A DNA stretch of 64,000 nt, from the NCBI GenBank assembly GCA_021604705.1, contig BQJM01000006.1, positions 2,087-66,086 of the forward strand, read 5' to 3'. The notes under the pieces are model-generated. The model did not search any database and was not told where the DNA came from. It saw nothing but the letters and a program-made list of their open reading frames with translations. Origin of the DNA: a marine bacterium B5-7 (GTDB taxonomy: Bacteria > Pseudomonadota > Gammaproteobacteria > BQJM01). The position numbers and the translations under genes are program-made. Shown one piece after another: positions 1 to 61,646 of the stretch. How positions within the stretch are numbered: the stretch's first letter is position 1; every line of letters begins with the position of its first letter.

Positions 1-150
1 ATCTAGATCCTAAAAAATAGCTACTGCTTTGTTTGTCATTCCAGAATTTGCGAAGCAAATGTCTGGAATCTAGATCCCAGACAATCGCTTTGCGATTTCT
101 GGGATGACATGAAACGCTGTCATCCCGCGCTTGATGCGGGATCTCCATCT
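1..150. repeat. REP/MITE-like stem-loop cluster, family 1 (three units; the window starts inside a further unit)
   Basis: Units are tgtcattccagaatttgcgaagcaaatgtctggaatctagatcc (34-77), inverted cccagacaatcgctttgcgatttctgggatgaca (76-109) and ctgtcatcccgcgcttgatgcgggatctccatcta (118-150). Confidence 0.85.
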
Positions 151-1541
151 AATGCCATCAATAAAAAATACTTGACTGGTATTAAACGTAATTCACCACG
201 TTTTTCGAAGGTGTTTTTGGTGAGTACTATTTTTTGTTTGTCCGTATCAGCATTTAATACGGGTTGGCAATCCGATGCGGTAATATTATTTTGATACTTC
301 ACTTCGATAGCAAAATCATTTGTGATAAAGTCAATTTCTTTTTTCTGTTGTGTAAAACCAACGTCCTTATCATGTTCTTTTAACTTCAAGTAAACCAAAT
401 TTTCTATTAACTGTGATTGGATAACCGGATCATTGAGGTAGGAAAAATCTTGTTCTGGTCGGCCATTTAGCCAGGCATCAATGACAGAATAGATAAAGGG
501 ATCGTTGAAATAGATTTTCTTGTTTTTACGATACATGATTCTGCCAGTTTCTAGATTGAGATGATTTGCCTGTGACAAGACGAACACATGACAGAAAAAG
601 TCAATATAATTTACTACAGTATTCCGTGAGCCAATGCCGATGTTCTGTGTGATTGATTGGTATGATACGTCAGCGGTTAGCCCCTTTAAACAGTAGTGTA
701 ACAAGTGTTTTGCGATGTATTCTTTCTTGTCTGATTTAGCAATTTCTGAAATAATCCAGCTGCGGTATATGGTAAAAATGTCGTAACTTATTTTCTGTTG
801 CATGTTATATTCATTCATTACACGCGGGAAGCCGCCGGTTTTTAAGTAATTTTTTAGCGCCTCATCGAGATTCATGGTTTTGTCTAATTTAAATAACTCA
901 GTTTCTGTGCTTTTTAGGTCTACAGATAAAGAAACCTGAGGATGTTGCAACTGCAATGCTTGGCGGAAATTCAGTGGCTTAAAGTAAAAGTCGATTCCTT
1001 TGCCTCGTCGCCCTGGTAAATATTCTCCTGTTTTCTTAACACTCATGGTATTCGAGCCTGTTAAAACATAAGTAATGTTTTTGTGATGGCCACTATCGAC
1101 TAAATATTTAATCGCAAGAAAACTATCTTTTACTGTGGTTACTTCATCCAGGAAAATATAGCGGCGTTGTTGGCTGGGGAATGTTGTTAGGTAATCTTCG
1201 ACCAATGCGACAATCTCTTTTTTACTGTCTAATAAGTCGCAATTGAAGTAGAAAAAGCAATCGTGGTTGTTTTCTTGTAAGGTTCTCTGGATGAATAGTT
1301 TGAGATGTGTGCTTTTGCCAATCTGACGGGGTCCCGTGACGATATAGACACCATCCTCGAATGTGTAATTCAAAAAGTTTTTTTCTTGGTGTTGTAGTGG
1401 AAATTCAGCCAAGCGCAGTAAGTGGGGATCGGTATTTATAGCCGCCGGATCCCATAGCCAAGGACTCTGTTTATGAAGTGTTTCTAAATCTGTCATAATG
1501 ATGGCCTCAAAATTAGTGTCAGTCACATTGACATTAATCAT
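120..1541 (-). CDS. AAA+ ATPase with PD-(D/E)xK-like C-terminus (AAA_14/DUF4143-like), paralogue A
   Basis: Walker A GPRQIGKST, Walker B YIFLDEV, C-terminal EIDFITNDFAIEVK. The last 9 codons and the stop lie inside a REP unit. The start may be internal (MTDLETL, 1496). Confidence 0.8.
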   Translation of the reverse strand: MINVNVTDTNFEAIIMTDLETLHKQSPWLWDPAAINTDPHLLRLAEFPLQHQEKNFLNYTFEDGVYIVTGPRQIGKSTHLKLFIQRTLQENNHDCFFYFNCDLLDSKKEIVALVEDYLTTFPSQQRRYIFLDEVTTVKDSFLAIKYLVDSGHHKNITYVLTGSNTMSVKKTGEYLPGRRGKGIDFYFKPLNFRQALQLQHPQVSLSVDLKSTETELFKLDKTMNLDEALKNYLKTGGFPRVMNEYNMQQKISYDIFTIYRSWIISEIAKSDKKEYIAKHLLHYCLKGLTADVSYQSITQNIGIGSRNTVVNYIDFFCHVFVLSQANHLNLETGRIMYRKNKKIYFNDPFIYSVIDAWLNGRPEQDFSYLNDPVIQSQLIENLVYLKLKEHDKDVGFTQQKKEIDFITNDFAIEVKYQNNITASDCQPVLNADTDKQKIVLTKNTFEKRGELRLIPVKYFLLMALDGDPASSAG

Positions 1542-1696
1542 GGGGTGACGTTTAAAGTATCACGCAGGGCATGGTACAGATATAAATTTTTTATACTTGT
1601 CCCTTAAAAGTGATTTTGTTCTATTAGGGACAGCTAAGCCATTCTTAAGCTTCCCTTAAGCAATTAAGGCATCTGAAGGAAATAGAAGAGGTTCCC

Positions 1697-1819
1697 ATGG
1701 TGATTGGCAATGAGAATCTCACAAAAATTGTCGATGAAGTTGATAAAGCTCGCGGTGATGTACTATATCCTGCACGTTTTTCAGAAAAACAGGTGCCAAC
1801 GAATTGGCACAATGGATAG
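1697..1819 (+). CDS. Small hypothetical ORF (40 aa, MVIGNENLTKIVDEVDKARGDVLYPARFSEKQVPTNWHNG)
   Basis: ATG is preceded by gaagagg. A strong hairpin plus T8 terminator follows 25 nt after the stop. It is below the ORF-track size cut-off. Confidence 0.25.
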   Translation: MVIGNENLTKIVDEVDKARGDVLYPARFSEKQVPTNWHNG

Positions 1820-1841
1820 TGATAACAGTTACTTTGTAGAG

Positions 1842-8547: not shown

Positions 8548-8776
8548 ATCTTTTTTCAACGATCTCTATCTTTTCGAATGAGGTTCACTGGGTTAGGTAG
8601 GTTCTTGGGGAGAGACATTTTCTTCAAGTAACGGTCCCATTTCGCCAACACTTTCTTTAAACGTAGCTGCTGACTTTCTGTTGTTGGCTTTTCCACGTTG
8701 ATTCCTCTAGGGTGCCAAATTAGTATCAGTATTAACCTTTTTTTAGAGAAAATGCGAGTAGATTCAGGGTTTTCGG

Positions 8777-8872
8777 CATATTTTACAACGCAAATGTAAA
8801 ATACGCTGGATATTTTCCAATTGCGATGTAAAATAAGAAGCATATTTTCCAGCCACGATGTAAATGAGCATG
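8777..8872 (+). promoter_or_regulatory. Three phased 32-bp repeats directly 5' of, and overlapping, the start of ATPase paralogue B
   Basis: catattttacaacgcaaatgtaaaatacgctg / gatattttccaattgcgatgtaaaataagaag / catattttccagccacgatgtaaatgagcatg. Function is untested. Confidence 0.7.
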
Positions 8873-10033
8873 ACAAAAATGGTAACGAAACGATATTTTA
8901 AGCCGCCTGAGCGAACCAGCTATTTCTTGTTTGGGCCTCGCGGTACAGGTAAATCAACCTTAATGGCAGCGTTGTATCCGGATGCGCTACTGATTAATTT
9001 GCTTTTGCCGGACACGCGGCGCCCCTATCTTGCCAAGCCTGATCGCTTGTTGGATGTCGTACGTGCACAACCTGAGGGGAAAACGATTGTCATCGATGAG
9101 GTTCAAAAAATTCCTGAGTTACTGTCGCTGGTTCATGTGTTGATTGAAGAAAAACAACAATGGCAATTTGTATTAACAGGTTCAAGCGCTAGAAAATTAA
9201 AACGTGAAGGCGTGAATTTATTGGGTGGTCGAGCGCTGGATAAACATTTACATCCATTCATGGCATCGGAATTAGGCGAAGGTTTTGATTTGCAGCAAGC
9301 ATTAAATTCGGGTTTGTTACCTTTGGCTGTGGCGAGTGATACGGTGCAAGAAACCTTGTCAGCATATGTGACTTTATACCTGGAAGAGGAAGTAAAAGCA
9401 GAAGGATTTATTCGAGATATTGAACCCTTCTCTCATTTTTTAGAAGTTTTAAGTTTTTCTCATGGTTCGCTCTTAAATTTAAGTCATGTTGCGCGGGAGT
9501 GTCGTCTAAAGCGTGCAACCGTCGATAACTGGTTATCTATTGCAGAAGACTTGCTCATTGCTTTTCGTTTGCCAGTATTTTCACGACGAGCTAAACGGAT
9601 TCTTACCACACAGTTGAAATTTTACTATTTTGATTCGGGGGTTTATCAAATACTGCGGCCCCGTTCAGTCATAGATAGTCGTAGTGAGGTAGGTGGCGCA
9701 GCGTTAGAAGGATTGGTCGCACAGCATTTGCGTGCTTGGATTGATTACAGCCATGCGAAACATAAACTTTATTACTGGCGTACAAAGTCCGGGGTTGAAG
9801 TTGATTTTATTGTCTATGGAGAGAAAGGGCTCTGGGCTATTGAAGTCAAGTACAGTGGTTATGTGGATAGTAAAGATCTGCGAGGATTAAAAAACTTTAA
9901 AGAAGATTACCCTGAATCAACACCTATTATGCTGTATCAAGGGGATGAACGCATCTTACGAGACGGCATTCTGTGTATGCCGTGTGATGAATTTCTCAAA
10001 CAGCTTGTGCCGAACCAATCGTTGCCGGTTTAA
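8864..10033 (+). CDS. AAA+ ATPase with PD-(D/E)xK-like C-terminus, paralogue B
   Basis: GPRGTGKST, VIDEVQK, TGSSARKL, VEVDFIVYGEKGLWAIEVK. Confidence 0.85.
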   Translation: MSMTKMVTKRYFKPPERTSYFLFGPRGTGKSTLMAALYPDALLINLLLPDTRRPYLAKPDRLLDVVRAQPEGKTIVIDEVQKIPELLSLVHVLIEEKQQWQFVLTGSSARKLKREGVNLLGGRALDKHLHPFMASELGEGFDLQQALNSGLLPLAVASDTVQETLSAYVTLYLEEEVKAEGFIRDIEPFSHFLEVLSFSHGSLLNLSHVARECRLKRATVDNWLSIAEDLLIAFRLPVFSRRAKRILTTQLKFYYFDSGVYQILRPRSVIDSRSEVGGAALEGLVAQHLRAWIDYSHAKHKLYYWRTKSGVEVDFIVYGEKGLWAIEVKYSGYVDSKDLRGLKNFKEDYPESTPIMLYQGDERILRDGILCMPCDEFLKQLVPNQSLPV

Positions 10034-11054: not shown

Positions 11055-11945
11055 TCAGCAATAGCCGGTTCTAGGAGAGAATACAGAAGTAAACCCTTCT
11101 CTGGGAAGCGGGAGCCCCTCGAGCTCCTTGCTGAGCTGCTGATTGCTGGGGATGTTGGGCAGTGCCTCCACTTGTTTGCGTGCTGCTTCAGCAGGTTTGA
11201 GCGCCTCAAGTAATGCGGTATCAGTTTTCACTGATGCTTGTTGCGCTATCTCTGCCAGTGTGCCGGGCACCGCTGCATTGTGCTCTGCAGCATGCGCGGC
11301 AAAAAAACTATTGCGTTCTAGTATCGTTACAAGCCAGAGGCATGTGTACGTTCTTGAGGTTTCCTGATCCGGTTTAGAGCGTCTTTGCGAGTCTAATGGG
11401 TAGAGGTGTGTCTTGTTCATGGTGAGCGTGGTTAAGTGTGTATGCGCATGTAAGACGCGTAAGAGCACGATCAAACCGGCCAAGGGGAAGTCCGAATGGT
11501 CTAAGGCCAGGGTGGTTAGCAATGGTAGTCTTTTTAGAAGGCGTGCCACTGGATACATCCCAACAGTCTCGCTTTCCGTCAAACCGGGTAAGCGTAATTC
11601 ACGCAATTGTTGGAAATAGGTTAAATAGTCATATTGAGTTTCGCCGGGTAGCGATTGGCTTAGTATGCTAGACAAATGTCGTGCTAAATGGGGATCGGCA
11701 CTATTCTGAATACCGAGCACCTGTAGATGTTTGGCTTGTGTGCATAGCCAAGCGAACAAACCAAAAAAACCAAAGAGTGCGGCTGGATACCTGGTGTGTG
11801 AGTGTAATCTGATGGTAAAGGTGGTGAGTTTGACCTCTTGTAGTAAGCGATAAATGTCACATAATTGAGAAACCATCTGACGGTCAACATCATAATATTT
11901 CTGTGTTAGATCATCGCATGGGGATTCTAGTACCTTTTTCAGCAA
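11055..11945 (-). CDS. Hypothetical protein with RNI-type LRR-like segment; probably the 3' part of a frameshifted gene
   Basis: LPLLTTLALDHSDFPLAGLIVLLRVLHAHTHLTTLTMNKTHL. It starts only at a TTG. The frame is open upstream to about 12117 and overlaps the ORF at 11996-12259. Confidence 0.4.
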   Translation of the reverse strand: MLKKVLESPCDDLTQKYYDVDRQMVSQLCDIYRLLQEVKLTTFTIRLHSHTRYPAALFGFFGLFAWLCTQAKHLQVLGIQNSADPHLARHLSSILSQSLPGETQYDYLTYFQQLRELRLPGLTESETVGMYPVARLLKRLPLLTTLALDHSDFPLAGLIVLLRVLHAHTHLTTLTMNKTHLYPLDSQRRSKPDQETSRTYTCLWLVTILERNSFFAAHAAEHNAAVPGTLAEIAQQASVKTDTALLEALKPAEAARKQVEALPNIPSNQQLSKELEGLPLPREGFTSVFSPRTGYC

Positions 11946-14731: not shown

Positions 14732-14865
14732 AAAAGGCGGGTAAGAAAGAAGTCCAGAAGGATAGCTTCACCCCCGGAAGGATGCAAATACTTTCCTGGT
14801 ATGGTTGATTTTTGTACCACCTTCGCGTATTATCTCGCGAAAATAATATTAGAAGGTGTGTATTT

Positions 14866-16077
14866 ATGTTGTCAGCAGCAACAGTGAGCTCTCAAGAAGC
14901 TTATCAACGAGCCTTTATTGGCAAAGCAAATTACGTAGCATCTTTACGCCCGTCCTCTCCGGTAGATTCTATTTGTCAGGCATTGACTGAGCCAGATTTT
15001 CGTCAGATAGCTGGTTCTGAGTATCTGATAACTTGGGAGCAGCTATTTCAGCAATATTTTTCGCATTATTACCCAACAAACGGAAATGTATCTCAGTGTC
15101 CCAAAGCGTTTGGAGATTATTATGAAAAAAATTTGTTATGCCTTCAAAATCGTTTAAGTGACAAGCCTGATTTTCAAGGTAGAGCAGCGTTTGGGCATGT
15201 AAAACCTGATTGGTTTTTTGCGTTTTGTTTGGCGTATACCTATACGTTTTCAATGTTTCAGCCTGAAAAAAGATATTTGATGAGTGTGATTTTTCATGAT
15301 CGGGTAGATTTGTTAGAAGCTTTCATTCCACGTTGCGACACAGTGGATGAATACCAACAAGCACTCGAGGACTTGTTGGGTGAGGTGTATAAACCAAAGA
15401 TGCGTGTAGCCAAAGCAAAGGTCTATGATGTGCTTTACTGGATGAGAGAACAAAAAGCCCGTCAGTGTTTAAAATTTGTTTTTGATCGGATAAAAGAGAT
15501 GTTTCTAATGCGAGAAAAAGAGCCGACGAAGTCTGATAATGAGTCAACTGAGGTGTCACCTTTCCTCATGACTTTGCATGGTTGTGATGCTGCATTGATG
15601 CATGCTGCTGTGTTGACTGAGAATACAAGGGTGCTTTGTCAGCAAGTTAATTTCTGGGAGACCACAGATGAATTTTCTACGTATGCGGTTTTATTAGCCG
15701 GGACTTTTAATTGTCTGGCGAGCATGAAAGTTTTGTTGGGAGCTGGCGTTTCTCCTAATGAGTGCGAACTTCATGGTACAACGGCACTACATGAAGCCAT
15801 CCGTTATTTTTCATCACAAGACATGCTGGCATTATTAATAAAACACTCGCAGCCTGGCTTGTTGGATTATGAGGGAAAGACGCCGCAGGGTGTCGCACAA
15901 AAAGTGAAAAACACAGTTGCAGAAAGATTCTTGAGTCAACACTCTGTGAGGGATGTGGCAGCTCAACTGATGGATTGGTCTTCTGATACGCGCAGGGTGG
16001 ATGATAATAATGATGATTCGCCCAGACCGATTAGTCCCTCACCCCTGATACGATCCTTTGGTGCTAGCGGGCATTAG
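14866..16077 (+). CDS. Ankyrin-repeat protein (candidate secreted effector)
   Basis: ATG 14866 follows agaaggtg. C-terminal half has ANK-like LLGAGVSPNECELHGTTALHEAI and YEGKTPQGVAQ. Confidence 0.65.
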   Translation: MLSAATVSSQEAYQRAFIGKANYVASLRPSSPVDSICQALTEPDFRQIAGSEYLITWEQLFQQYFSHYYPTNGNVSQCPKAFGDYYEKNLLCLQNRLSDKPDFQGRAAFGHVKPDWFFAFCLAYTYTFSMFQPEKRYLMSVIFHDRVDLLEAFIPRCDTVDEYQQALEDLLGEVYKPKMRVAKAKVYDVLYWMREQKARQCLKFVFDRIKEMFLMREKEPTKSDNESTEVSPFLMTLHGCDAALMHAAVLTENTRVLCQQVNFWETTDEFSTYAVLLAGTFNCLASMKVLLGAGVSPNECELHGTTALHEAIRYFSSQDMLALLIKHSQPGLLDYEGKTPQGVAQKVKNTVAERFLSQHSVRDVAAQLMDWSSDTRRVDDNNDDSPRPISPSPLIRSFGASGH

Positions 16078-24152: not shown

Positions 24153-24153
24153 T

Positions 24154-44809: not shown

Positions 44810-44866
44810 TGATCAGAAGGGATCACTATATCAGGATAATCTTCCCTCGCAAGGCAGATTAGCTAG
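44810..44866. repeat. Left copy of the 57-bp direct repeat flanking ATPase paralogue E
   Basis: tgatcagaagggatcactatatcaggataatcttccctcgcaaggcagattagctag. The 43-bp core differs at 2 positions from 46491-46533. Confidence 0.85.
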
Positions 44867-44932
44867 CTGATCTGTCCTGGCAGGGAAAATTAGATGGGTT
44901 TGTTTCAGGAAATCTGATGAAGAAAGTCTGGA

Positions 44933-45016
44933 TGAGCCATTTATAAAAACCTATAAGTGGCTCAAATGACTTGATTAACTTAATTGAGCCACTTATACTT
45001 CATTATAAGTGGCTCA
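44933..45016. promoter_or_regulatory. Two 32-bp palindromes 5' of ATPase paralogue E
   Basis: tgagccatttata-aaaacc-tataagtggctca (44933-44964) and tgagccacttata-cttcat-tataagtggctca (44985-45016). The second ends 14 nt before ATG 45031. Confidence 0.75.
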
Positions 45017-45030: not shown

Positions 45031-46464
45031 ATGATTGGTCGACAGTTCGAAAGGACGCGATTAAAAAAGCTCTTTGATTCCACAGAAGCGGAATTTATGG
45101 TTGTCTATGGACGACGTCGCGTGGGTAAGACTTTTTTAATTCAATCTTACTTTACAGAGGAGCAAGACTGTGTGTTTATGCAGGCAACAGGCTTGCAAAA
45201 AGGGTCGCTTAAACAACAGCTCCAGCTTTTTACTGATGCACTTGCAAAGACCTTTTTCAGAGGTGCAATGATTACGCCACCGAAGGATTGGGGATCTGCA
45301 TTTAAATTGTTAACTCAGCAACTTGAAATGACAACACAGACCGTTGTTATATTTTTGGATGAATTTCCCTGGATGGTGACACCACGCGCTGGATTGCTTG
45401 AAATGCTGGACCACTATTGGAATCAATATTGGAGTCGTCTAAAGCATATTAGGCTTGTGATTTGTGGTTCTAGTGCTTCATGGTTAATTAAAAAAATTAT
45501 TGAAAATAAAGGGGGGTTACATAATCGCGTGACTTCTCAACTTCATTTGAAACCATTTACGCTTTCTGAGACAGCTGCGTTTTTAAAACATCGAAAGATT
45601 AAATTAAATGCCTCTCATTGCTTATCGTTATATCTAGCGCTAGGCGGCGTGCCATACTATTTAAAGTATGTTGAACCTGGATTAACTGCAGAACAGAATA
45701 TTCAGAGAATTTTGTTTGATCAAGATGCGCCGTTACATCATGAGTTTGAGAAACTTTTTTATTCGCTATTTAAACATGCAGATGCCTATATTGAGTTAAT
45801 TAAAGTTATCGGCATGCGAAAGGAAGGGTTAGACCGTGTAAGCCTCCAGAAACACACAAAAATCTCGAATGGTGGTCGACTTTCTGAACGTTTAAAAGAT
45901 TTAGTGCTGACTGGCTTTATCCAAACGTATAGTCAATTAGGAAAAACGCAAAATATCTACTACAAGCTCATTGATGAGTTTAGTCTTTTTTATTTTCAGT
46001 GGGTGATGCCACACAGAAATCAATTATTTGTTGGTGAGCATTGGTTGAGTCAACATCAAAAACCAGCTTATGCAAGTTGGGCTGGCTATGCTTTTGAAGC
46101 GGTGTGTATGCAACATATCGATCAAGTGGTGAAGGCATTGGGGATACACGGTGGTGGCGTAATTAGTTCATGGCGTTATATACCCAAAACGTCGAAAGAG
46201 TGTGGGGCTCAAATTGATTTGCTGATCGAGAGGAATGATAATGCAATCACTTTATGTGAAATTAAATACACACGAGAACCTTTTGTGATTGATAAAAATT
46301 ATGCGCTCATTTTACAGCGGAAAATTGATCTATTTAACGAAAAAACCAAAAACAAAAAACAAGTTTTTCTTGCATTGATCTCTGCTCACGGCGTGAAAAA
46401 AAATAAATATAGTGAGTTGTTAATCGATCAGGTTGTGACGCTTGAACATTTGTTTATCGGGTAA
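45031..46464 (+). CDS. AAA+ ATPase (DUF234/archaeal-ATPase-like) with PD-(D/E)xK-like C-terminus, paralogue E
   Basis: GRRRVGKTFL Walker A, IFLDEFPW Walker B, C-terminal AQIDLLIERNDNAITLCEIK. The ORF-track start at 44971 is a TTG inside the palindrome region. Confidence 0.75.
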   Translation: MIGRQFERTRLKKLFDSTEAEFMVVYGRRRVGKTFLIQSYFTEEQDCVFMQATGLQKGSLKQQLQLFTDALAKTFFRGAMITPPKDWGSAFKLLTQQLEMTTQTVVIFLDEFPWMVTPRAGLLEMLDHYWNQYWSRLKHIRLVICGSSASWLIKKIIENKGGLHNRVTSQLHLKPFTLSETAAFLKHRKIKLNASHCLSLYLALGGVPYYLKYVEPGLTAEQNIQRILFDQDAPLHHEFEKLFYSLFKHADAYIELIKVIGMRKEGLDRVSLQKHTKISNGGRLSERLKDLVLTGFIQTYSQLGKTQNIYYKLIDEFSLFYFQWVMPHRNQLFVGEHWLSQHQKPAYASWAGYAFEAVCMQHIDQVVKALGIHGGGVISSWRYIPKTSKECGAQIDLLIERNDNAITLCEIKYTREPFVIDKNYALILQRKIDLFNEKTKNKKQVFLALISAHGVKKNKYSELLIDQVVTLEHLFIG

Positions 46465-47853: not shown

Positions 47854-48876
47854 ATGAGTATTTCGAAGAAAGTTTCCCATAGATTATTGTCGCCAATTGC
47901 AGTATTGGGTGCCGGCTCATGGGGCACCGCGTTAAGCCTGGCTTTGGCCAGGCATCAACAAGATGTTGTGCTGTGGGATGTGAACAGTGAGCTGGTCACA
48001 TCCATGCAGCAATCACGCGAAAATACGCGCTATCTGCCCGGGATCCCTTTGCCAGATAATATTCACTGTTGCGACTCCTTAGCAGAAACGCTTAAACAAT
48101 CGCGCGATGTATTAATTGTCGTACCGAGTCATGCATTTCGTCGCGTTCTACAAAACATTAAACCGCATTTAGCTGCCGATGCGCGTGTCATTAGCGCGAC
48201 CAAAGGCTTAGATGCAGAAACCGGTCAACCTTTATCTGCTGTATTTCGTGAAGAAATGGGCGATAGAGCTTATGCTGTATTATCCGGCCCATCGTTTGCG
48301 AAAGAAGTTGCGGCGAATATGCCAACCGCTGTGACCATTGCCAGCGAAGATACTGACTGGTTAGCAACGGTTGCGGCGAGTTTCCACCAACAAACTTTTC
48401 ACGTATATACATCGCAAGATGTGCTTGGTGTGAGTTTGGGGGGGGCTGTTAAAAATGTGATAGCAATTGCTGTTGGGATGGCGGATGGTTTGGGTTTTGG
48501 CACCAATACAAAAACAGCATTGATCACCCGTGGTTTAGCAGAAATGATGCGCCTGGGTGAAGCGCTTGGTGCACAACGCGAAACATTTACCGGTTTATCC
48601 GGCGTGGGTGATTTGGTGTTAACTTGCAGTGATAATCAATCGCGTAATCGTCGTTTTGGGTTGGCGATTGGTCAAGGCCAAGCGGTACAAGCGGCGGAAG
48701 AAGCCATTGGCCAAGTGGTCGAAGGCAAACGCAATGCCCAAGAAGTAGTAACACTAGCAAGGCAGCATGATGTGAATATGCCGATTGCAGAACAAGTCTT
48801 CCGTGTCCTCTACGAAAACGCCCCCATTGCGACGGCGGTCAATGCCCTACTCGCCCGCGATTTGCAGGGAGAGTAG
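47854..48876 (+). CDS. gpsA: NAD(P)H-dependent glycerol-3-phosphate dehydrogenase
   Basis: GAGSWGTAL Rossmann motif, GAVKNVIAIAVG. Confidence 0.92.
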   Translation: MSISKKVSHRLLSPIAVLGAGSWGTALSLALARHQQDVVLWDVNSELVTSMQQSRENTRYLPGIPLPDNIHCCDSLAETLKQSRDVLIVVPSHAFRRVLQNIKPHLAADARVISATKGLDAETGQPLSAVFREEMGDRAYAVLSGPSFAKEVAANMPTAVTIASEDTDWLATVAASFHQQTFHVYTSQDVLGVSLGGAVKNVIAIAVGMADGLGFGTNTKTALITRGLAEMMRLGEALGAQRETFTGLSGVGDLVLTCSDNQSRNRRFGLAIGQGQAVQAAEEAIGQVVEGKRNAQEVVTLARQHDVNMPIAEQVFRVLYENAPIATAVNALLARDLQGE

Positions 48877-50112
48877 TTTATGGGGGCGGGGTGGTTCTTG
48901 TCTTGTTTGTGAGAGGGGTGCTTGCGCGGGCACTGCTGAAATACTCAGAACCGGGCTAAAAAATGTTGCCTCCGGCATATCCGGCGCTATTTCTGTGATT
49001 AATTTCAATAGACGATTAGATGCTGCTGCTTGTTGCTGAGCGTTGGTGAGTGGGTATGCAGCAAATGGTACCAGGTCGCTTTCGGGCGCCTGTGTTGATG
49101 GTGGCGTTGTCTCAACATAGGCCTTTTCAAGGTATCTTAAATCTTCTTTGATAAAGCTGATAGGATATGTGCTTCTTATGAATGCCTCTACTTCATCAGG
49201 TGTATTACAGTGTTTCCCGACCCACGTCATGATTGTTGCTTTATGTCCTTCATTATGACCTAACAAAAGCGCGCTTAACGTTGGTATTGTGTTGATATGC
49301 ATGAGCAATTCTTTTGTAATGTTGGTTATGCTGATATCTGTTTGACCGTTTAGTAAAAAATGTAGTTTTAACGGTGTATCTGGACTCGCGCTTGCCTTGC
49401 CGCTTAGTTCTTTGAGGGTTTTATCAAAGATAGAGATAAATGTTGTTGGTACTAGGGCAATCAGTAAACCCAGTGCACCATGATAATTGACCTTCAGCTT
49501 AGATATCTTACCTGTCGTCCTGATACAGCGTTGTTTTAATTTCTTCTCAAATATTGAAAAGGCTGTGTATACATGGCTAAGATCGGATACCTTCTTCGCT
49601 AGCGCTGTCGCAACCTCATGAGGAATGCTCCCTTTAGCACATGAGCTGCGAATGTCTTCCAACGCCTGAGTGACCTCTTGATGGCAGGTGCGAAGACTAT
49701 GCCAGCCACGGGTGTGCCCAATATCTTTTGAGTCGATGCGGCTGCTGAAGCATGCCACGATCTTTGCCATCTGCTCGAGTAGCTGGGCATCGCCATTGGA
49801 TTTGTTAAATGCGGTTAACCAGCGCGAGTGTGTGTTACCGAGTGCAAGCTTGATGGTGTGGCGATCTGTGCTTCCTGCATCGAAAAATTGTAATAAGGGA
49901 TTTTTAGGGGGCGTGTAAGTGGATGTAGCTTCGTTATAGCGTTTCGCTAATGTTAGTTGTTCGCGGATGAGTTTATTAAGTCTATGTAAGGGATTGCCTA
50001 GGATCGTACTTTGAGAACGCCATAGCTGTACCATGGTAATATGCAGCAAAGGTTGTACCAAATTTTGCTCAAAGGTGCGCCCGAGGCGGGTACTGGTGTC
50101 TAATAAGGTCAC
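48847..50112 (-). CDS. Orphan hypothetical protein (421 aa)
   Basis: Long ORF with GTG start 8 nt after gcaggag. No motif recognised. Its 3' end overlaps the gpsA 3' end by 30 nt. Confidence 0.45.
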   Translation of the reverse strand: MTLLDTSTRLGRTFEQNLVQPLLHITMVQLWRSQSTILGNPLHRLNKLIREQLTLAKRYNEATSTYTPPKNPLLQFFDAGSTDRHTIKLALGNTHSRWLTAFNKSNGDAQLLEQMAKIVACFSSRIDSKDIGHTRGWHSLRTCHQEVTQALEDIRSSCAKGSIPHEVATALAKKVSDLSHVYTAFSIFEKKLKQRCIRTTGKISKLKVNYHGALGLLIALVPTTFISIFDKTLKELSGKASASPDTPLKLHFLLNGQTDISITNITKELLMHINTIPTLSALLLGHNEGHKATIMTWVGKHCNTPDEVEAFIRSTYPISFIKEDLRYLEKAYVETTPPSTQAPESDLVPFAAYPLTNAQQQAAASNRLLKLITEIAPDMPEATFFSPVLSISAVPAQAPLSQTRQEPPRPHKLLSLQIAGE

Positions 50113-55875: not shown

Positions 55876-56010
55876 CTGTCATCGTGTGCAGCTGTCATCC
55901 CGGCCTTGAGGCGGGATCTCCATCTATTGCCACTGTCATCCCGCGCTTGACGCGGCACGTTCCCTGTCATCCCGGCCTTGAGCCGGGATCTCCTGAGAGT
56001 ACTGCGGTGC
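55876..56010. repeat. REP cluster, family 1: three to four same-orientation units, no inverted partners
   Basis: ctgtcatcgtgtgcag, ctgtcatcccggccttgaggcgggatctccatcta, ctgtcatcccgcgcttgacgcggcacgttcc, ctgtcatcccggccttgagccgggatctcctgaga. Confidence 0.88.
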
Positions 56011-56065
56011 TAGAATGCAATTTGGCCCTGGGCGGGCCGAATTGCAAAAAAATGTTTGTAATGAC

Positions 56066-57220
56066 CTATTTAGATGCTGTGAATTGCGCAGTGGTATTCG
56101 TATCATTTGCGGGTAGCTTGATTTCGGCTGGTGTATTTTTTCTTGCTGGTGCATAGCCCAAGAATTTCCAAAAAGAATGCCGCATATCCTCTAGAAAACT
56201 GGGGCAGCGGGGCAGATTAGGCCCTGGTAAGCTTAGAGTATATGATGCTTTAGCTTCGCCACCATCGTTGGGGACTGCGGTTAAAGTCAATTGCGGCTCA
56301 CCCGCTGACGTTTCGCTATGGTGTAGCTGTAACTGATGATTCTCCACTAATTCCCACTGATGAGCGACAATAAAGCGGGCGGCTTTGGGATCATCTAAAA
56401 TGGCTTGGTATGTTTGTTCCGACATTGAATGCCCGACCATAGTTGCTTTTTCAGACAATGCATTCACTAGAAATTTGTCTAAGGCGTACTGTTTTGCGTG
56501 CTCTAAATTTTTTCCTTCTGCTAAACGCGTGCTGAACATCATCGGTATCTGTGTTCCTGCTTGCTTTGCATTTAACACCATGCGATGTTTTTCAGTGATG
56601 CGAGCCTGTCGATTGCTAGGAACCGTGCTGACAATGCGCATGGTGATATCAAGTAGGCTACCAGAAACGCGTGTTTCTTTTGATTGTAGTTTCAGTGTAT
56701 TAGGCCGGAGATTATCGTAAGTTGATAAAAATGTGTGAAATGCTTTTTGATTCAAAAACACATTTCGTACGAATGCTGGGTTGATGGATGCAAGGGTTGG
56801 CAACCATGCTTTTAAGGCCTTGTAAGCGTTTTCTGACAGTAAGGGAAGTGTGAGCCAAGGCGCATAGTCAACCATCACAAAATACTGGTTGTCTTCCCCA
56901 GCTTCATTTATTTTTTTAAACGCCAACCAGCGTACTGGTTGACGATCACTTTTTTCAAAGTGAAAAGCGTGGCTATAGATATACTGAAACTGCCAATCCC
57001 TATTTGTTTTATGATAGAGATCCAGAAACATACCGCGCATAGATTCCTTTTCTGCATCTGAAAGGATGTTGCTGGTGATATTGGGGGTGATAGGCGTTTG
57101 ATCGGATGTTGCTTGTGGCATGCCCGATGTCAGCTGTATTTGCTGCATGATGCTGGTATAGCCAGCAGGACAAGTGGGGGCTAAGCCCGGTGGGTTATAA
57201 GGTTCGGCTGCGAATGGCAT
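56066..57220 (-). CDS. Orphan hypothetical protein (384 aa), Pro/Thr/Ser-rich N-terminus
   Basis: ATG start, long ORF, no motif recognised. Confidence 0.5.
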   Translation of the reverse strand: MPFAAEPYNPPGLAPTCPAGYTSIMQQIQLTSGMPQATSDQTPITPNITSNILSDAEKESMRGMFLDLYHKTNRDWQFQYIYSHAFHFEKSDRQPVRWLAFKKINEAGEDNQYFVMVDYAPWLTLPLLSENAYKALKAWLPTLASINPAFVRNVFLNQKAFHTFLSTYDNLRPNTLKLQSKETRVSGSLLDITMRIVSTVPSNRQARITEKHRMVLNAKQAGTQIPMMFSTRLAEGKNLEHAKQYALDKFLVNALSEKATMVGHSMSEQTYQAILDDPKAARFIVAHQWELVENHQLQLHHSETSAGEPQLTLTAVPNDGGEAKASYTLSLPGPNLPRCPSFLEDMRHSFWKFLGYAPARKNTPAEIKLPANDTNTTAQFTASK

Positions 57221-57474
57221 AAGCGTGTGTTCCGTTTATTGTGTAGTCGACTATTCTAAGGTCTTTAGTTTAGTGCCACAAGCACATTAAAACCGAAGCT
57301 GACCCTCACTAGGCAGTGCAAAAGCATTCGCTGCATTTAATTGTGCGTAGGCAAGGTCATAATCAGAAAAATCGATGCTTGCGGTAAAAGTTTGTGCTCT
57401 GGCTAGCATGTGGCAAAAACAATTTCTTGTTCAAGCACCTGCAAATTTTTTCGATTAGTGGCCATTGAAATTTT

Positions 57475-57567
57475 CCATGAATGTTAAAATTTTTAGTCTA
57501 AAGCCGTTATTTTGTCAAAAATTTTAGATTAACAGGGTTATTTTGCAAAAATTTTAGAATAAGGAGG
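57475..57567. repeat. Three phased 31-bp repeats ending in a perfect SD
   Basis: ccatgaatgttaaaatttttagtctaaagcc / gttattttgtcaaaaattttagattaacagg / gttattttgcaaaaattttagaataaggagg. The units contain ATTTTG(T)CAAAAT palindromes. Confidence 0.75.
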
Positions 57568-57586
57568 CGCTTTGCTGGTTATGAGC

Positions 57587-57608
57587 ATTTTGCAAGATAA
57601 TGCAAAAT
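57587..57608. promoter_or_regulatory. 22-bp palindrome ATTTTGCA-N6-TGCAAAAT inside a 9-codon mini-ORF
   Basis: attttgca agataa tgcaaaat. The 38-nt context 57579-57616 matches 61751-61788 at 32 of 38 positions. Confidence 0.7.
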
Positions 57609-57763
57609 AGTCTTGATCTCTTCGCGTGTTTTTTGACGGAAAAATGCTAAAAGACAACGGCTGGATGGGCAACTGAGATATACCCCGGGAAAATGGTATT
57701 GACGCTTCTTGTTTCAATGGTGTAGCTTGTGAGCCTGGGTGAGTTATTTCTTCTAGGAGGTGT

Positions 57764-58090
57764 GTGATGAATGGTGGAAACGCAACTTTTTTTGAGCCAG
57801 AACGAATACCACAGAGCAGTTGTGATGCAGCAGAACAAATGAAGCAGCAGATGAAGCTAGCGGAAGCGGAACTTGTGCGCCTGAGCAGCGAGGCTGCATA
57901 CTTATCGAGGGAAAGAGCGCGGTGCATGCAAGCGATGGAAAGGTCGGAAAACGGCGGGCAATGGGCGTCGAGTACGGGCTATGAGAAACTGAGGCGAGAG
58001 ATGGATGAACTGAACAAAAAAATAGAGATCGCAGGTTGCCAGCTGGATGCGAGGCATCAAGTGTATTGTCGAGAATATTTAGGTATGTGA
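57764..58090 (+). CDS. Small coiled-coil hypothetical protein (108 aa)
   Basis: Strong SD ctaggaggtgtgtgATG. Heptad-like charged sequence. Confidence 0.5.
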   Translation: MMNGGNATFFEPERIPQSSCDAAEQMKQQMKLAEAELVRLSSEAAYLSRERARCMQAMERSENGGQWASSTGYEKLRREMDELNKKIEIAGCQLDARHQVYCREYLGM

Positions 58091-58131
58091 ATATTAACAG
58101 CTAGGATTGAGAAGCAGTCTACAGGTGGCGT

Positions 58132-60300
58132 ATGCAACTTCGTATCCATGTGGGTTTTATGCCGGAAGAGGTGTCAGCAAAGCTCAAACCCTGTCTTGAT
58201 AGGCGGCGATCAGAGCGCTCTATCATTATCATTTCACGAGATGATCCTGTCGGTAATGCTGCATTATTTGAGCAACCACTGTTACGCTACAAAGGTTTAT
58301 GTGCATCCCTCGAGCAGGGGCGGTGGGCGAGCCTTTTTAGTCCGATTTTGAGATCTGATGTTGATGACGTCTGCGAGACACTTACCCAAAAAATAGAAAG
58401 GCACATGGACTTTGATATTCGCGATTACCGTTTAGCCGATCTCAAATGCAAGTTGAAAGATACAAAAGATGGTCGTCCCCCCTTAACTGTCATGCGGGTT
58501 GGGCAAGGGAGTGTCTCAGATATTTTCTTTCAGCTTCCTGAAATGGGTTTTCAACCAAATTTATCGGTAAGACTGGCAGAGGGTGTTTTTCAGGGGGTGC
58601 TAGACTGGTTAGCAACCCTTGATCCTAACCTTTATGGCGATATAAACCTTGATATTTTTGGTGCGGGCGGCTCAGTGAATGCGTCCTGTTCGCCCGGTTC
58701 TATGCATGCTATTCAGGCAGTATTCAGTATCCGACGTTTACTAAAAACAACGTGTTTCACGAGCAAGCTTGCCCTAAAATATCTCTCAGATTCGGGTATG
58801 GATAATAAGCCTGGTGTGGTGCTGCAAAGTGGTGAGCTGTTAGATCATTTTCTGGCGCAGGAAGTGTCTCGCTATATCTTGTTGGTGCTAGCGTCAGATC
58901 TCGAGTCATATTCTCTCAGTCGTCCTTATTTGGAATATCTAAAAAGAAAGGCTCCTGACTACAGGCAGTGTAGTGAAAAAGTTAATACTTTGGTTGCAAA
59001 AAATGTTGAGATAGATGCCGACATTAATCGGCTTTATTCTTGCATGGGTTTATCTGAAGAGCCTTCTGTGAAAAAGGCGATTATCGAGAGTCTTTCTATT
59101 AGGAAGGCTCAAAAAAAACAAATTGAGGCAGAGTTAAAATATTTCTCTGATGAGAAAAAAGTAATTGAGCAAAAAGAAATTGATGGTATTAAAGCGATTG
59201 CTGATATTGTTGCTCCTGGGGAGCGGCGTCAACTACTACGAGACTTGTTAGCACGTAGTGTAAGAAATTTACCACCACATTCTGTTAGCTGTAGTGCCGG
59301 TATGTTTTTAGATGCAATGATGAAGCGGGCATGTAACAAACTGTTCGGAAGTTATGTTTCAGATGCAAATATGGAAGATGATATTTGTATTGAACTAGAC
59401 ACACACCTTAAAAAATGGGTTTCGCGCTTTAATGAAGAACATGTTACGACTATTCAGCTTATGTCTACGTGTAGAAGGGTCCATTGTGATCCTTATTGCA
59501 TTCCAGACGATGTGGTAAAAGCATTTAAAAACTGGGCATGTGACAAAAAGTATAGCCTTGAACATTATGTTAGCGCGGTTGTTTGGGGTGTGAGTGGATT
59601 TGATCAGCGTTATTTGCCTGAAACGGCATCTTGGGATCTTGAGGGCATTGACCATGAAGAGGTTGCACAGAGATTGGGCTTTAGGACAACGTGCAAAAAT
59701 GGACAGAAAATTATTTTAGATCCGTTTTGGCGTGAAATAGCGACGGATCTCTTGGATGACATTATTTCTGGGAAGGCATTTCCACCATCAATTGACCAAG
59801 AAGAGCGCGAGGGTCTTGCAAAGGAATTCGTCATGCTAAAAGATAAATTAATGTTTTGGTCTGCGAATGGTTTTTCTGTGCCAGCAGATATTCAGCAAGG
59901 ATTAGAAAAACACTTAAAAACGTTTTTGAATAAATGTTCTCTTCGGTTTGAGAATGAAGCAAATGAATTATGTTATCAAGTTTGGATCCGGCAAGGTAGC
60001 TGGGGTGGTAATGCCGCGCAGAGTTTATTTACGTTAGCAGAACCCTTGGATGCCTCACGACCAGAAGAGTATGCGGGTTTGGTGGATAGAGCTTTTTATG
60101 TTTCAACGAATATTGTTGCTTTACAACAGCGAGGGAAGGAATTAATTGAGCAGCAAAGTTTGAAAGAGCAGTTAGCGCAAGTAAATTCGAGAATCCAGAA
60201 TCTTTCTTCAGAAGTTGAGCAACTAAGAAGAAGAATCGCTGAAGCTGGACGAGGAGGTGCAACACCGGTAACCGTATTAGGACTAAATATCCCCACTTAG
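58132..60300 (+). CDS. Orphan hypothetical protein (722 aa) with C-terminal coiled coil
   Basis: ATG follows aggtgg. It lies 41 nt after the 108-aa ORF. C-terminal QQRGKELIEQQSLKEQLAQVNSRIQNLSSEVEQLRRRIAEA. Confidence 0.55.
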   Translation: MQLRIHVGFMPEEVSAKLKPCLDRRRSERSIIIISRDDPVGNAALFEQPLLRYKGLCASLEQGRWASLFSPILRSDVDDVCETLTQKIERHMDFDIRDYRLADLKCKLKDTKDGRPPLTVMRVGQGSVSDIFFQLPEMGFQPNLSVRLAEGVFQGVLDWLATLDPNLYGDINLDIFGAGGSVNASCSPGSMHAIQAVFSIRRLLKTTCFTSKLALKYLSDSGMDNKPGVVLQSGELLDHFLAQEVSRYILLVLASDLESYSLSRPYLEYLKRKAPDYRQCSEKVNTLVAKNVEIDADINRLYSCMGLSEEPSVKKAIIESLSIRKAQKKQIEAELKYFSDEKKVIEQKEIDGIKAIADIVAPGERRQLLRDLLARSVRNLPPHSVSCSAGMFLDAMMKRACNKLFGSYVSDANMEDDICIELDTHLKKWVSRFNEEHVTTIQLMSTCRRVHCDPYCIPDDVVKAFKNWACDKKYSLEHYVSAVVWGVSGFDQRYLPETASWDLEGIDHEEVAQRLGFRTTCKNGQKIILDPFWREIATDLLDDIISGKAFPPSIDQEEREGLAKEFVMLKDKLMFWSANGFSVPADIQQGLEKHLKTFLNKCSLRFENEANELCYQVWIRQGSWGGNAAQSLFTLAEPLDASRPEEYAGLVDRAFYVSTNIVALQQRGKELIEQQSLKEQLAQVNSRIQNLSSEVEQLRRRIAEAGRGGATPVTVLGLNIPT

Positions 60301-60382
60301 CTGAGCCCATATTTGTATTGGAAAGAATAAGCAAGGTATTATCTTTTTGATATTTTTTGGCCCCTGTTTTCCTGCTACAGCC

Positions 60383-60478
60383 CAAATTACCATGCACTTT
60401 GGTCCTGGCAGGGACAAATTACATTGCATTTTGTCCCTGCCAGGGCCAAAATGTAAAATATATTCAAGCGTAAACAGG
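60383..60478 (+). promoter_or_regulatory. Three phased 32-bp repeats directly 5' of ATPase paralogue F
   Basis: caaattaccatgcactttggtcctggcaggga / caaattacattgcattttgtccctgccagggc / caaaatgtaaaatatattcaagcgtaaacagg. Units 1 and 2 match at 25/32; cctggcagggacaaa and tttgtccctgccagg form a 15-bp inverted repeat. Confidence 0.75.
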
Positions 60479-60485
60479 TTATCCC

Positions 60486-61646
60486 ATGTCATCTCCCAGT
60501 GAATTTCAACGATCGTTAAATATACCGCTGGATGTTAATCAGAGCTTCTTCCTCTTTGGTCCTCGTGGTACAGGCAAAACGAGCTGGTTAAAAGCCAATG
60601 TAAAAAATGCCATTTATTTTGATTTGTTAAAAGCAAAATGGCGTAATCTTTTTTTAGCTGATCCGGGCCGGCTTGAGGAAAATATACCAGAGAATTTTGA
60701 TGGATGGGTGATTATTGATGAAGTGCAAAAAGCACCTGAACTCTTAAACGAAGTGCATCGTTTAATTGAAGAAAAACGTTACCGATTTATTTTGACAGGA
60801 TCCTCTGCTAGAAAGTTACGTCAGGAGGGCGTGAACTTATTAGCGGGTCGTGCGTACATCTACAACATGCACCCACTCACAGCAGAAGAAATGGGAGATG
60901 CGTTCCAGCTTGATAAATATCTCTTACATGGCGGTATTCCAGCTATTTATAATACAGAACTAAGTGCTGAAGAATTTCTAGCAAACTATATTGAAACCTA
61001 TCTTGAACAAGAAGTATTGCAAGAAGGATTGATTCGGCAACTAGAACCCTTTGCTCGTTTCTTAGAGAGCGCGTCTTTTTCTCAGGGAAGTACTTTAAAT
61101 ATGACAGCGGTTGCACGAGACTGTGCGGTGAGTCGAAAAATTGTCACCGGGTATTTTGATATTCTAAAAGACTTGTTGATAGGCTATAAATTGCAGCCAT
61201 TTACACGTCGTGCTCAGCGGCGTTTAACAATGAATCCCAAGTTTTATTATTTTGATGTAGGCGTTTTTCGCTATTTACGTCCTCAGGGACCATTAGACAG
61301 TACGAAAGAGTTAGATGGTCCTGCTTTAGAAACCCTTTTCTTACAAAATTTGCGGGCGATTAATGACTATCATCATTTAGGTTACTCGCTTTATTATTGG
61401 CGAACGAGTACGGGAACAGAAGTTGATTTCGTTTTGTATGGTGAACGTGGTTTTTATGCATTTGAAATAAAGCGGAGTGCGAAGATTACAAAATCGGATC
61501 TAAGTGGTTTAGGTGCTTTTCTGAAAGATTATCCTGAGGCAAAGGGATACTTGTTATACGGCGGTACGCATCGCGAGTACCATGGCAATATCACTGTACT
61601 TCCTTTCATTGAAGTTATTCAAACATTACGCGATTTCATTGGTTAA
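60486..61646 (+). CDS. AAA+ ATPase with PD-(D/E)xK-like C-terminus, paralogue F
   Basis: GPRGTGKTS, IIDEVQK, TGSSARKL, TEVDFVLYGERGFYAFEIK. Confidence 0.85.
   Translation: MSSPSEFQRSLNIPLDVNQSFFLFGPRGTGKTSWLKANVKNAIYFDLLKAKWRNLFLADPGRLEENIPENFDGWVIIDEVQKAPELLNEVHRLIEEKRYRFILTGSSARKLRQEGVNLLAGRAYIYNMHPLTAEEMGDAFQLDKYLLHGGIPAIYNTELSAEEFLANYIETYLEQEVLQEGLIRQLEPFARFLESASFSQGSTLNMTAVARDCAVSRKIVTGYFDILKDLLIGYKLQPFTRRAQRRLTMNPKFYYFDVGVFRYLRPQGPLDSTKELDGPALETLFLQNLRAINDYHHLGYSLYYWRTSTGTEVDFVLYGERGFYAFEIKRSAKITKSDLSGLGAFLKDYPEAKGYLLYGGTHREYHGNITVLPFIEVIQTLRDFIG

Follow-up and report, generated by a model that had tools for sequence, protein, structure and literature searches.

Single-gene AAA+ ATPase modules with a predicted nuclease domain and private promoter-proximal dyad arrays among the housekeeping genes of a marine gammaproteobacterium

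Six genes for predicted ATPases, about one per 10 kb, lie among the housekeeping genes of a 64-kb stretch of DNA from B5-7, an uncultured, Legionella-like marine gammaproteobacterium (GenBank assembly GCA_021604705.1, contig BQJM01000006.1, positions 2,087 to 66,086). This whole stretch of 64,000 nucleotides is called the window below, and the genes are named copies A to F by position. An earlier note on the same DNA had proposed a repeated single-gene module, made up of an AAA+ DNA-binding protein with a nuclease fold and of its own sites, and the present analysis supports that view. On balance, we consider it probable that the loci are mobile, self-repressed, ATP-dependent nuclease modules with a conflict-type role. 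We are more confident of the family identity and the accessory status of the genes than of this whole package; the conflict role, judged by itself, is close to an even call.

The family is already catalogued: PADLOC lists it under PDC-S01 and PDC-S27, both among the commonest "defence candidates". The literature searched does not describe for this family any dyad arrays next to the promoter, operator specificities private to a copy, or a density of some one copy per 10 kb. Nor did we find an account of such arrays being phased and private to each gene, or of their link to residues 216-221 of the copy B protein.

Results

Four old paralogues, a distant member and a protein of a separate family

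All six coding sequences were found as open reading frames (ORFs) at or near the positions where they had been reported:

Copy A: 120-1541, reverse strand; distant PDC-S01-type AAA_14 ATPase, 473 amino acids (aa).
Copy B: 8864-10033, forward strand; AAA_14, winged helix and DUF4143 (PD-(D/E)xK), 389 aa.
Copy C: 20699-21868, reverse strand; AAA_14 and DUF4143, 389 aa.
Copy D: 33629-34825, reverse strand; AAA_14 and DUF4143, 398 aa; adjoins a SoFic-type Fic gene.
Copy E: 45031-46464, forward strand; ATPase_2 and DUF234, 477 aa; PADLOC PDC-S27.
Copy F: 60486-61646, forward strand; AAA_14 and DUF4143, 386 aa.

Copies C and E have longer alternative starts at an upstream TTG, and B could start at 8870 or 8879. 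Copy A carries an N-terminal extension of ~60 aa and a diverged, DUF4143-like C-terminus. The genes stand alone, without conserved partners, and their neighbours change from locus to locus.

The earlier note had assigned five of the proteins to the AAA_14+DUF4143 architecture. This holds by Pfam for B, C, D and F (AAA_14, E 1e-18 to 1e-23; DUF4143, E 1e-31 to 1e-35); A matched AAA_14 alone (E 9e-25) and qualifies as a distant member by profile alignment (below). The assignment of E to the DUF234 type was correct, with ATPase_2 at 4e-18 and DUF234 at 23.3 bits, barely over the cut-off of 22.5. Against the PADLOC models, A, B, C, D and F match PDC-S01 over their full length with E values of 3e-42 to 3e-59 (A to model PDLC04787, 3e-42, residues 58-462; C, 3e-59; D, 4.5e-58), and E matches the PDC-S27 model PDLC04984 end to end at 4e-168. 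An NCBIfam profile search gave no family above the cut-off, and a PDB sequence search with copy B gave no match.

In all-vs-all blastp comparisons, B and F are 48% identical and the remaining pairs among B, C, D and F 32-37%, in agreement with the claim that the copies are old and not recent duplicates. Copy A aligns with these four over its full length at ~20% identity (E 1e-4 to 1e-6), and E gave no significant match to the other five. When A was aligned by hhalign with a profile of 42 B-family sequences, the probability was 96% over 347 columns, and the alignment took in the nuclease motif (EIDF...AIEVK on EVDF...AIEVK); with E the probability was 6%, restricted to the P-loop region. With A distant and E lacking a significant match, the description of the set as "six paralogues" was overstated: by sequence, four of the proteins are clear, old paralogues of one another, A is a distant member, and E belongs to a separate family whose layout is analogous.

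The motifs quoted in the earlier note are all present. Walker A (GxxGxGK[ST]) and Walker B (hhhDE) are intact in 6/6 proteins, as is the E/Q-(V/I)-D...E-(V/I)-K motif in its EVD, EID and QID variants; (T/S)GSSARKL occurs in B, C, D and F.

Predicted fold and catalytic site

The AlphaFold2 (AF2) model of copy B has a pLDDT (predicted local distance difference test) of 91 and a pTM (predicted template modelling score) of 0.92. In Foldseek searches, its N-terminal two-thirds matched RuvB, RFC clamp-loader subunits, Orc1/Cdc6 and MuB (E 3e-6 to 1e-3), and the matched part is modelled as AAA+ base, lid and winged helix. Orc1/Cdc6 on origin DNA (2qby_B) matched at E 4e-5 over 371 columns; RuvB and clamp-loader subunits matched as well as or better than Orc1/Cdc6. 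A Pfam match to the ORC-CDC6-like family, in B only and covering residues 16-43, stayed below threshold (E 0.0025; 17.1 bits against a cut-off of 27).

A separate AF2 model of residues 264-389 (pLDDT 93) has the order helix-strand-strand-strand-helix-strand (H-E-E-E-H-E). Most of its Foldseek matches were PD-(D/E)xK nucleases, among them the DdmD nuclease domain, Can2/VC1899, Bax1, Hjc resolvases and the R2 endonuclease, with a probability of ~1, a template modelling (TM) score of ~0.5 and modest E values of 1e-3 to 1e-2; the NERD domain was also matched in Pfam (E 1e-4). Copy B is thus modelled with a restriction-endonuclease-like alpha-beta-beta-beta-alpha-beta core. As to a nuclease fold common to all six proteins, a check proposed with the original observation, the motif is there in 6/6 and the fold in the B model; E has no significant sequence match to the other proteins.

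Residues K30, D78/E79, R110, E282, E312, D314 and K329 are invariant in the 42 B-family sequences, and E327 nearly so. T105 and the invariant R110 of the TGSSARKL motif follow strand 101-106 in the model, resembling the SRC motif of clamp loaders, and R110 is a candidate arginine finger. The nuclease is probably active in these proteins, to judge by their sequences.

Dyad arrays before the genes

Repeats were sought with Tandem Repeats Finder (TRF), an inverted-repeat search and motif searches; generic palindrome-array scans, which demanded more regular units, failed to detect the arrays of B and D. The following elements lie upstream of the six genes:

A candidate dyad: 1599-1631, reverse strand; 33 bp, GTCCCTAA...TTAAGGGAC, read by eye.
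B array: 8776-8866, forward strand; three dyads TATTTT(A/C)CA-N7-TGTAAAAT at 32-bp spacing.
C palindrome: 21892-21942; single, 51 bp, with 23-nt arms 96% complementary.
D array: 34836-34934, reverse strand; three near-complete 33-bp palindromes, half-site GAAAWTTGTAYMCC.
E array: 44933-45016, forward strand; two 32-bp palindromes, TGAGCCAYTTATA-N6-TATAAGTGGCTCA.
F array: 60383-60453, forward strand; two dyads, half-site TKCAWTTTGKCCC around a CCCTGSCAGGG core.

The claim of private repeat arrays thus stands for B, D, E and F, with a single palindrome at C; at A there is only a weak candidate, and an F-type dyad recurs elsewhere (56015-56047, below). The last dyad of the B array (TRF period 32, 2.8 copies) overlaps the start codon. 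The B motif has 6 matches in the window against 0.06 expected, five of them within the array (both strands) and the sixth, with 2 mismatches, at 63047-63070. The F dyads (TRF period 32; inverted repeat I3) are 32 bp apart and end 33 bp upstream of the F start. The D array (TRF period 33, 3.0 copies, 86% matches) occupies the space between the topA stop and the D start and contains a weak promoter-like match and a terminator-like match. The five best matches to its motif (0-2 mismatches) all fall within it and three 2-mismatch matches lie elsewhere; the total of 8 is near chance for so short a pattern (3.7 expected). The E palindromes are 52 bp apart, centre to centre, and end 14 bp before the E start; the half-site pattern has 4/4 window matches in the array, a count not far above chance (4 against 1.2 expected). 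The C palindrome ends 24 bp upstream of the C ATG, within a divergent intergenic region. The tentative A dyad was not detected by the repeat tools, and CTTAAGG-type repeats lie further upstream of it.

Weak matches to sigma-70-like promoters fall across the arrays of B, D, E and F; the one at F is TTGTCC-17-TAAAAT. A putative element common to E and F, TCCYTGSCAGGGA, was dropped when, within one mismatch, the F site alone matched. A further feature of the gpmI-E intergenic region, upstream of the E array, is a 56-bp imperfect palindrome (44837-44892; 32-nt overlapping arms, 81% complementary) containing TCCTGGCAGGGA, which is similar to the F dyad core.

Dyads as a family trait linked to the winged helix

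The dyads of copy B recur with its relatives. They are kept upstream of an 87% identical homologue that lies at a different locus (L001, described below), and also at loci L086, L109 and others. Between the B locus and that of the 87% homologue, nucleotide similarity is confined to 8806-10014, beginning at the second dyad and stopping where the coding sequence ends. At a synonymous divergence (dS) of 1.3, neutral DNA no longer aligns, and these limits therefore show constraint on the dyads. We rejected their use as the ends of a transferred cassette, since at this dS constrained sequence alone would align.

A metagenome scan yielded 80 B-family loci of 46-65% identity, 73 of which had the full 200 nt upstream and entered an enrichment test. 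A strong palindrome occurs in the interval -70..+3 at 55% of the 73, as against 22% in a distal control region (-200 to -128) and 16% in shuffled sequences (Mann-Whitney, p 1e-4 and 1.5e-12, respectively). The B-family dyads are centred on a base, with half-sites at positions 3 to 12 and a span of 25 bp; they have non-complementary centres of 5-7 nt, AT-rich arms and a fixed distance from the start codon, which the last site mostly touches. Wherever two sites are cleanly resolved, the spacing is 32 bp. Half-site sequence is conserved among proteins just ~50% identical, and start-proximal dyads are also found at more distant members at other loci, including A-like and E-like genes. In one B/F-family subclade (L147, L150, L152, L153, L156, L157, L159 and L162), a near-consensus promoter, TTGACA-N16/17-TAAAAT, overlaps the dyad, and the ATG follows the -10 hexamer after 6-7 nt, a distance that suggests leaderless transcripts.

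The half-sites fall into classes: TTTAC(A/G), TGG(A/C)(A/G)T, TGCAAA and others. We ranked the 389 alignment columns as predictors of hand-checked operator class by permutation-adjusted mutual information, the raw measure being swamped by high-entropy columns. The top three correspond to B residues 218, 221 and 216, and residue 219 comes fifth. All four map to the beginning of the third helix of the winged helix, predicted to span 217-229. At residue 218, 10/10 TTTAC loci have A/S and 32/32 TGG loci K/R; of the 4 TGCAAA loci, three have G and one A. The TTTAC class is dispersed over a neighbour-joining tree from which residues 195-262 were left out, L109 for example falling among TGG-class proteins. 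Several site types in one 64-kb stretch, each beside a different paralogue, argue against a single host factor. The simplest reading, and one that we think likely from these sequence comparisons, is that the winged helix of each protein reads the sites before its own gene.

Position of the genes and relation to other genomes

The gene contexts are as the earlier note described them: parC|A, ftsY|B|rpoH, gcvT|C, fic|D|topA, gpmI|E|rhodanese-...-secB-gpsA, and F among ORFs without a Pfam match. It had further held that the copies are inserted at junctions between conserved blocks, and this is borne out at the three junctions that could be compared (B, C and E). Among species-representative genomes, the best GcvPB matches reach only 70% and belong to metagenome-assembled genomes (MAGs) labelled Gammaproteobacteria, Legionellales, Coxiellaceae and Berkiella, in which synteny is kept only across the gcv operon. 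The closest relative reached is metagenome assembly ERZ23497388, with the following protein identities to the window:

ParC: 77%.
RpoH: 74%.
FtsY: 68%.
RsmD: 60%.
Two M16 peptidases: 51-56%.

This relative keeps the block rpoH-ftsY-M16-M16-rsmD-...-parC. The synteny comparison, another of the checks first suggested, shows ftsY directly adjoining rpoH, with no B between them; an F-like gene (57%) is present between rsmD and parC, where the window has none. The relative's B homologue is the 87% identical gene mentioned above, more similar than every housekeeping protein compared, and located elsewhere, beside an MFS (major facilitator superfamily) transporter gene, gltA and sdh. Between this gene and copy B, the ratio of nonsynonymous to synonymous divergence (dN/dS) is 0.058 at dS 1.3; by this estimate, copy B is under strong purifying selection. 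When the filled site was compared with the empty one, the B insert showed neither terminal inverted repeats nor duplications; this is a single comparison, with a relative too diverged for flank alignment. By Pfam, there is no transposase or homing-nuclease domain. The same assembly has a ParE/RHH (ribbon-helix-helix) toxin-antitoxin pair beside rpoH (L083, 75-588) and a second, A-like DUF4143 gene (L001, 5261-6568), 3.4 kb from the B homologue and with its own CTAACG-N-CGTTAG dyads just upstream.

For C, pgpA directly adjoins gcvT in two more distant MAGs (L007 and L021), which places C in an insert of 3.9 kb that also contains an orphan ORF and toxin-antitoxin remnants. The latter, at 23483-24480, are remnants by appearance: an HTH_3/MqsA-like antitoxin gene (24154-24480), a 52-aa ORF (23483-23641) that repeats its N-terminus, and two short ORFs (23745-23876 and 23970-24152) that look like a split toxin gene. 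For E, yibN and gpmM are adjacent and divergent in E. coli K-12, and the gene hence sits in an old conserved junction. Fmt homologues, sought to reach the D and E junctions in relatives, were at best 61% identical and synteny was lost.

Horizontal exchange is indicated by composition and distribution. The GC content of the six genes is 0.377-0.434 (A, 0.377; C, 0.392; F, 0.397, with 0.318 at third codon positions) against 0.464 +/- 0.023 in 21 housekeeping genes, and local GC dips are visible. Sequences from Chlamydiia, Dependentiae/Babeliales and gammaproteobacterial MAGs are among the closest relatives of B (up to 67%), and the best plasmid match is to a plasmid of Simkania negevensis. The family was found on 321/72,556 plasmids and in only 4/50,697 phage records. 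Copies A, B and E stand alone between housekeeping genes, C is beside the toxin-antitoxin remnants, and D adjoins a Fic protein gene (32167-33363) whose product matches PADLOC SoFic (E 1e-28), which puts D in a two-gene cluster of defence candidates. From the sequences compared, the copies are accessory genes with a function, whose position shifts and which pass from lineage to lineage.

Sites away from the family genes, and other features of the window

Three elements of the same kinds lie apart from the start of a family gene:

Extra F-type dyad: 56015-56047; TGCAATTTGGCCC-N-GGGCCGAATTGCA.
Gene-less array 1: 61754-61817; two abutting 32-bp palindromes, core ATTTTGCA-N6-TGCAAAAT.
Gene-less array 2: 61845-61928; three dyads TTACTAAGTAT-N-ATTAGTAA at 32-bp spacing.

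The extra F-type dyad, detected both as inverted-repeat pair I4 and by the palindrome scan, is separated from F by 4.4 kb on its upstream side and falls between the stop codons of the convergent ileS and ORF o384; across 30 nt it is 80% similar to the F array. The two gene-less arrays sit between the stop codons of F and ORF o348 and have no adjoining family gene. The type of array 1 has a third copy at 57579-57616, exact at all 16 specified bases (57587-57608), 4.2 kb from the array and ~160 nt upstream of the operon formed by a small gene and o722. Array 2 (TRF period 32, 2.6 copies) accounts for all 6 matches to its motif in the window, with 0.00 expected.

Hairpins of another kind also occur. 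One resembling repetitive extragenic palindromes (REPs), CTGTCATCCCG(S)(S)CTTGA(N)GCGGGATCTCC, is present three times downstream of ileS (55892-55993) and once across the 3' end of A (116-145). Downstream of A, in the first 120 nt of the window, two tandem 34-bp hairpin palindromes, TTCCAGAATTTGC-GAA-GCAAATGTCTGGAA and ATCCCAGACAATCGC-TTT-GCGATTTCTGGGAT, each follow a copy of the direct repeat ATCTAGATCC (1-10 and 68-77); in appearance they are closer to REP or terminator hairpins than to operators.

Many ORFs with no Pfam or PADLOC match are interspersed among the housekeeping genes (11055-11945, 14812-16077, 21987-23438, 48847-50112, 56066-60300 and 62010-63824), one of them with faint ankyrin repeats; they would fit effector-like genes of a host-associated bacterium of the Legionellales type. 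Directly upstream of the 722-aa orphan ORF, 57768-58090 is probably a small gene (~107 aa, coiled-coil-like, with AGGAGG 6-7 nt before the ATG), and a 129-aa ORF on the opposite strand is probably spurious. A 131-nt segment in the 3' part of o348 (62062-62192) is repeated with 90% identity at 63870-64000, suggesting that a paralogue of o348 begins just past the window.

Discussion

We propose that each locus is an independent, horizontally mobile single-gene module in which a dyad operator array directly precedes a gene for an AAA+ ATPase with a winged-helix DNA-binding domain and a C-terminal PD-(D/E)xK nuclease. Dimers of the protein would bind the one to three dyads of their own gene through the winged helix; with a spacing of 32-33 bp, some three helical turns, successive dimers would be lodged on one face of the DNA, and three dyads would offer six half-sites, one hexamer's worth of subunits. 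Since the sites overlap promoter and start codon, binding would shut off the gene's own transcription, and with a private site for each paralogue many copies could coexist without cross-talk. Self-binding and self-repression are what we infer from the sites and the proteins. ATPase and nuclease might then carry out ATP-dependent cleavage of foreign DNA, or else of the cell's own DNA in an abortive or addictive mode. A selfish or conflict-related role, as originally suggested, fits the matches to PDC-S01 and PDC-S27, the low GC content, the displaced 87% homologue of B and the SoFic and toxin-antitoxin neighbours.

These properties invite comparison with systems already described. A 2012 survey (PMC3424549) lists both domain families, DUF4143 (COG1373) and DUF234, as PD-(D/E)xK families whose function is unknown. 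PDC-S01 (COG1373; AAA_14, PF13173, and DUF4143, PF13635), very abundant and horizontally spread, has the same single-gene layout as A, B, C, D and F and likewise fuses an ATPase to PD-(D/E)xK; when candidates are counted as well, it has been ranked as the fourth most common defence system in prokaryotes (PMC12988326). Like PDC-S27 (COG1672; ATPase_2, PF01637, and DUF234, PF03008), to which copy E belongs, it is described there as an ATPase fused to PD-(D/E)xK that still awaits validation. The earlier note's description of the family as functionally uncharacterised is right in that no functional study was found, and had missed this cataloguing. To what the papers searched say of PDC-S01, the window copies add the dyad arrays, the private sites and the density of one copy per 10 kb or so between housekeeping genes. 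Copy E has no detectable homology with the DUF4143 copies past the P-loop region, yet it too has two 32-bp palindromes upstream.

The nuclease domain of B finds its best fold matches in DdmD (of DdmDE), Can2/Card1 and Hjc-type nucleases, which have the same D...E-x-K layout. The likeness is one of fold (12-20% identity); the partner domains differ, being a helicase in DdmD and a CARF sensor in Can2, and unlike those systems the window genes have no guide or signal-sensing partner encoded beside them.

Self-repressed defence and toxin-antitoxin loci are known in which helix-turn-helix or WYL repressors act on their own operators, BrxR/CapW-type loci being an example. The logic proposed here is the same, namely a DNA-binding domain that occupies dyads at its own promoter and keeps a potentially toxic effector low. 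Unlike in BrxR/CapW-type loci, repressor, ATPase and effector would be one polypeptide, and the operators are phased 32-bp arrays.

Several points weigh against the interpretation of the loci as mobile, self-repressed conflict modules. One representative each of PDC-S01 and PDC-S27, challenged in E. coli B with T4, T5 and T7, were not among the protective candidates (bioRxiv 10.1101/2024.09.26.614923), and a literature search for AAA_14, PF13173 and PF13635 turned up no functional study or defence validation. The case for self-binding is one of covariation, with classes assigned partly by eye, related sequences and a poorly resolved tree. Insertion is documented by the junctions of B, C and E, those of A, D and F being without a comparable relative, and no recombinase, terminal repeats or target duplications were found. 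The gene-less arrays at 61754-61928 and the F-type and TTTTGCA-type dyads 4 kb away are not explained by simple self-repression. Finally, the D array and the gene-less arrays are near-complete palindromes 3' of other genes and could be RNA hairpins or terminators instead.

It is also worth considering that the modules might propagate themselves. The ATPase-nuclease would then act like a transposase or homing enzyme, recognise its own dyads as donor site or end of an element, and in this way carry the module from junction to junction. In favour of such selfish elements, relatives differ in the position of the genes, and the similarity of the B homologue exceeds that of every housekeeping gene compared; gene and sites are conserved together, the module joins a site-specific DNA-binding domain to an ATPase and a nuclease, and MuB and the R2 endonuclease figure among the fold matches of its two parts. 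The high density in the window recalls the genome of a Legionellales symbiont, which was reported to carry large families of "ATP-binding protein" and AAA-ATPase genes, with DUF4143 among the domains in its gene-family figure and 50 PADLOC-called genes, many of them in expanded families. The gene-less arrays could be the footprints of lost copies. This alternative is nevertheless unlikely. The sites are confined to the 5' side of the gene, where those abutting the start codon resemble operators; terminal inverted repeats and target-site duplications were not seen, and the family is without similarity to known transposases or homing endonucleases. A dS of 1.3 with a dN/dS of 0.06 bespeaks long-term function and not recent bursts of copying, and paralogues 32-48% identical exclude recent copying within this genome.

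A related conjecture, to which we give correspondingly little weight, sees in the dyad arrays something beyond operators and makes of the modules autonomous selfish elements of the "gene plus address" kind, where the AAA+-nuclease would assemble on its own phased array (three dyads, six half-sites). Assembly might mark the locus as self while DNA lacking the array is cut, or might drive the element's own copying or retention. If true, this would explain both why the modules are spread, at one per 10 kb, over housekeeping junctions in endosymbiont genomes and why some arrays have no gene.

Strong purifying selection, three arrays without a gene of their own and dyads away from family genes (F-type, 56015-56047; TTTTGCA type, 57587-57608) would also suit domesticated site-specific regulators or chromosome organisers, which would control small private sets of host genes and in which the nuclease fold would serve for oligomerisation or DNA clamping. 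We judge this quite improbable: the D...E-x-K catalytic residues are invariant, positions vary between relatives, low GC and the high similarity of the B homologue indicate horizontal transfer, and outside their own arrays the window contains no good copy of the B or E motif.

The repeats might, alternatively, have nothing to do with the proteins and be RNA or REP-type elements (terminators, attenuators or extragenic palindromes) that merely share variable junctions. Genuine REP-like hairpins do occur in the window (55892-55993, 116-145 and 37-105), and a terminator-like match lies in the D array. For the near-complete palindromes 3' of other genes, as in the D array and the gene-less arrays, this explanation is plausible; for the B-family dyads it is not. 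There the half-site is conserved at ~50% protein identity and tracks residues of the recognition helix, and the dyads have non-complementary 5-7 nt centres, AT-rich arms and a fixed start-codon distance. Moreover, the B, E and TTACTAA-type motifs lack the dispersed distribution in the window that REPs have. As a general account of the repeats, it has very little chance of being right.

The notion of an Orc1/Cdc6-like initiator with sites comparable to origin recognition box (ORB) repeats was raised in the earlier note. Such a protein would melt or remodel DNA at its array and so start replication of the chromosome or of an integrated element. This can hardly be maintained: the AAA+ base, lid and C-terminal winged helix that B shares with origin-bound Orc1/Cdc6 (2qby_B), the sub-threshold Pfam match and dyad repeats beside the gene for the protein that appears, by prediction, to read them, as at archaeal origins, are outweighed by six loci within 64 kb of a bacterial chromosome, arrays that overlap start codon and promoter-like hexamers and do not flank an AT-rich unwinding element, matches to RuvB and clamp-loader subunits (RFC) that are equal or better, an intact, conserved nuclease domain foreign to any known initiator, and the lack of a local GC-skew change at the loci.

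If the genes are indeed governed by private arrays at their own promoters, as we favour, these arrays would provide a first handle on the DNA-binding specificity of the family, with residues 216-221 as a recognition code, and would explain how dozens of paralogues coexist in one small genome. They would also offer an experimental entry, in which self-repression is removed and the nuclease is watched. For genome surveys the finding carries a warning, namely that not every copy of these genes should be counted as a working antiviral system.

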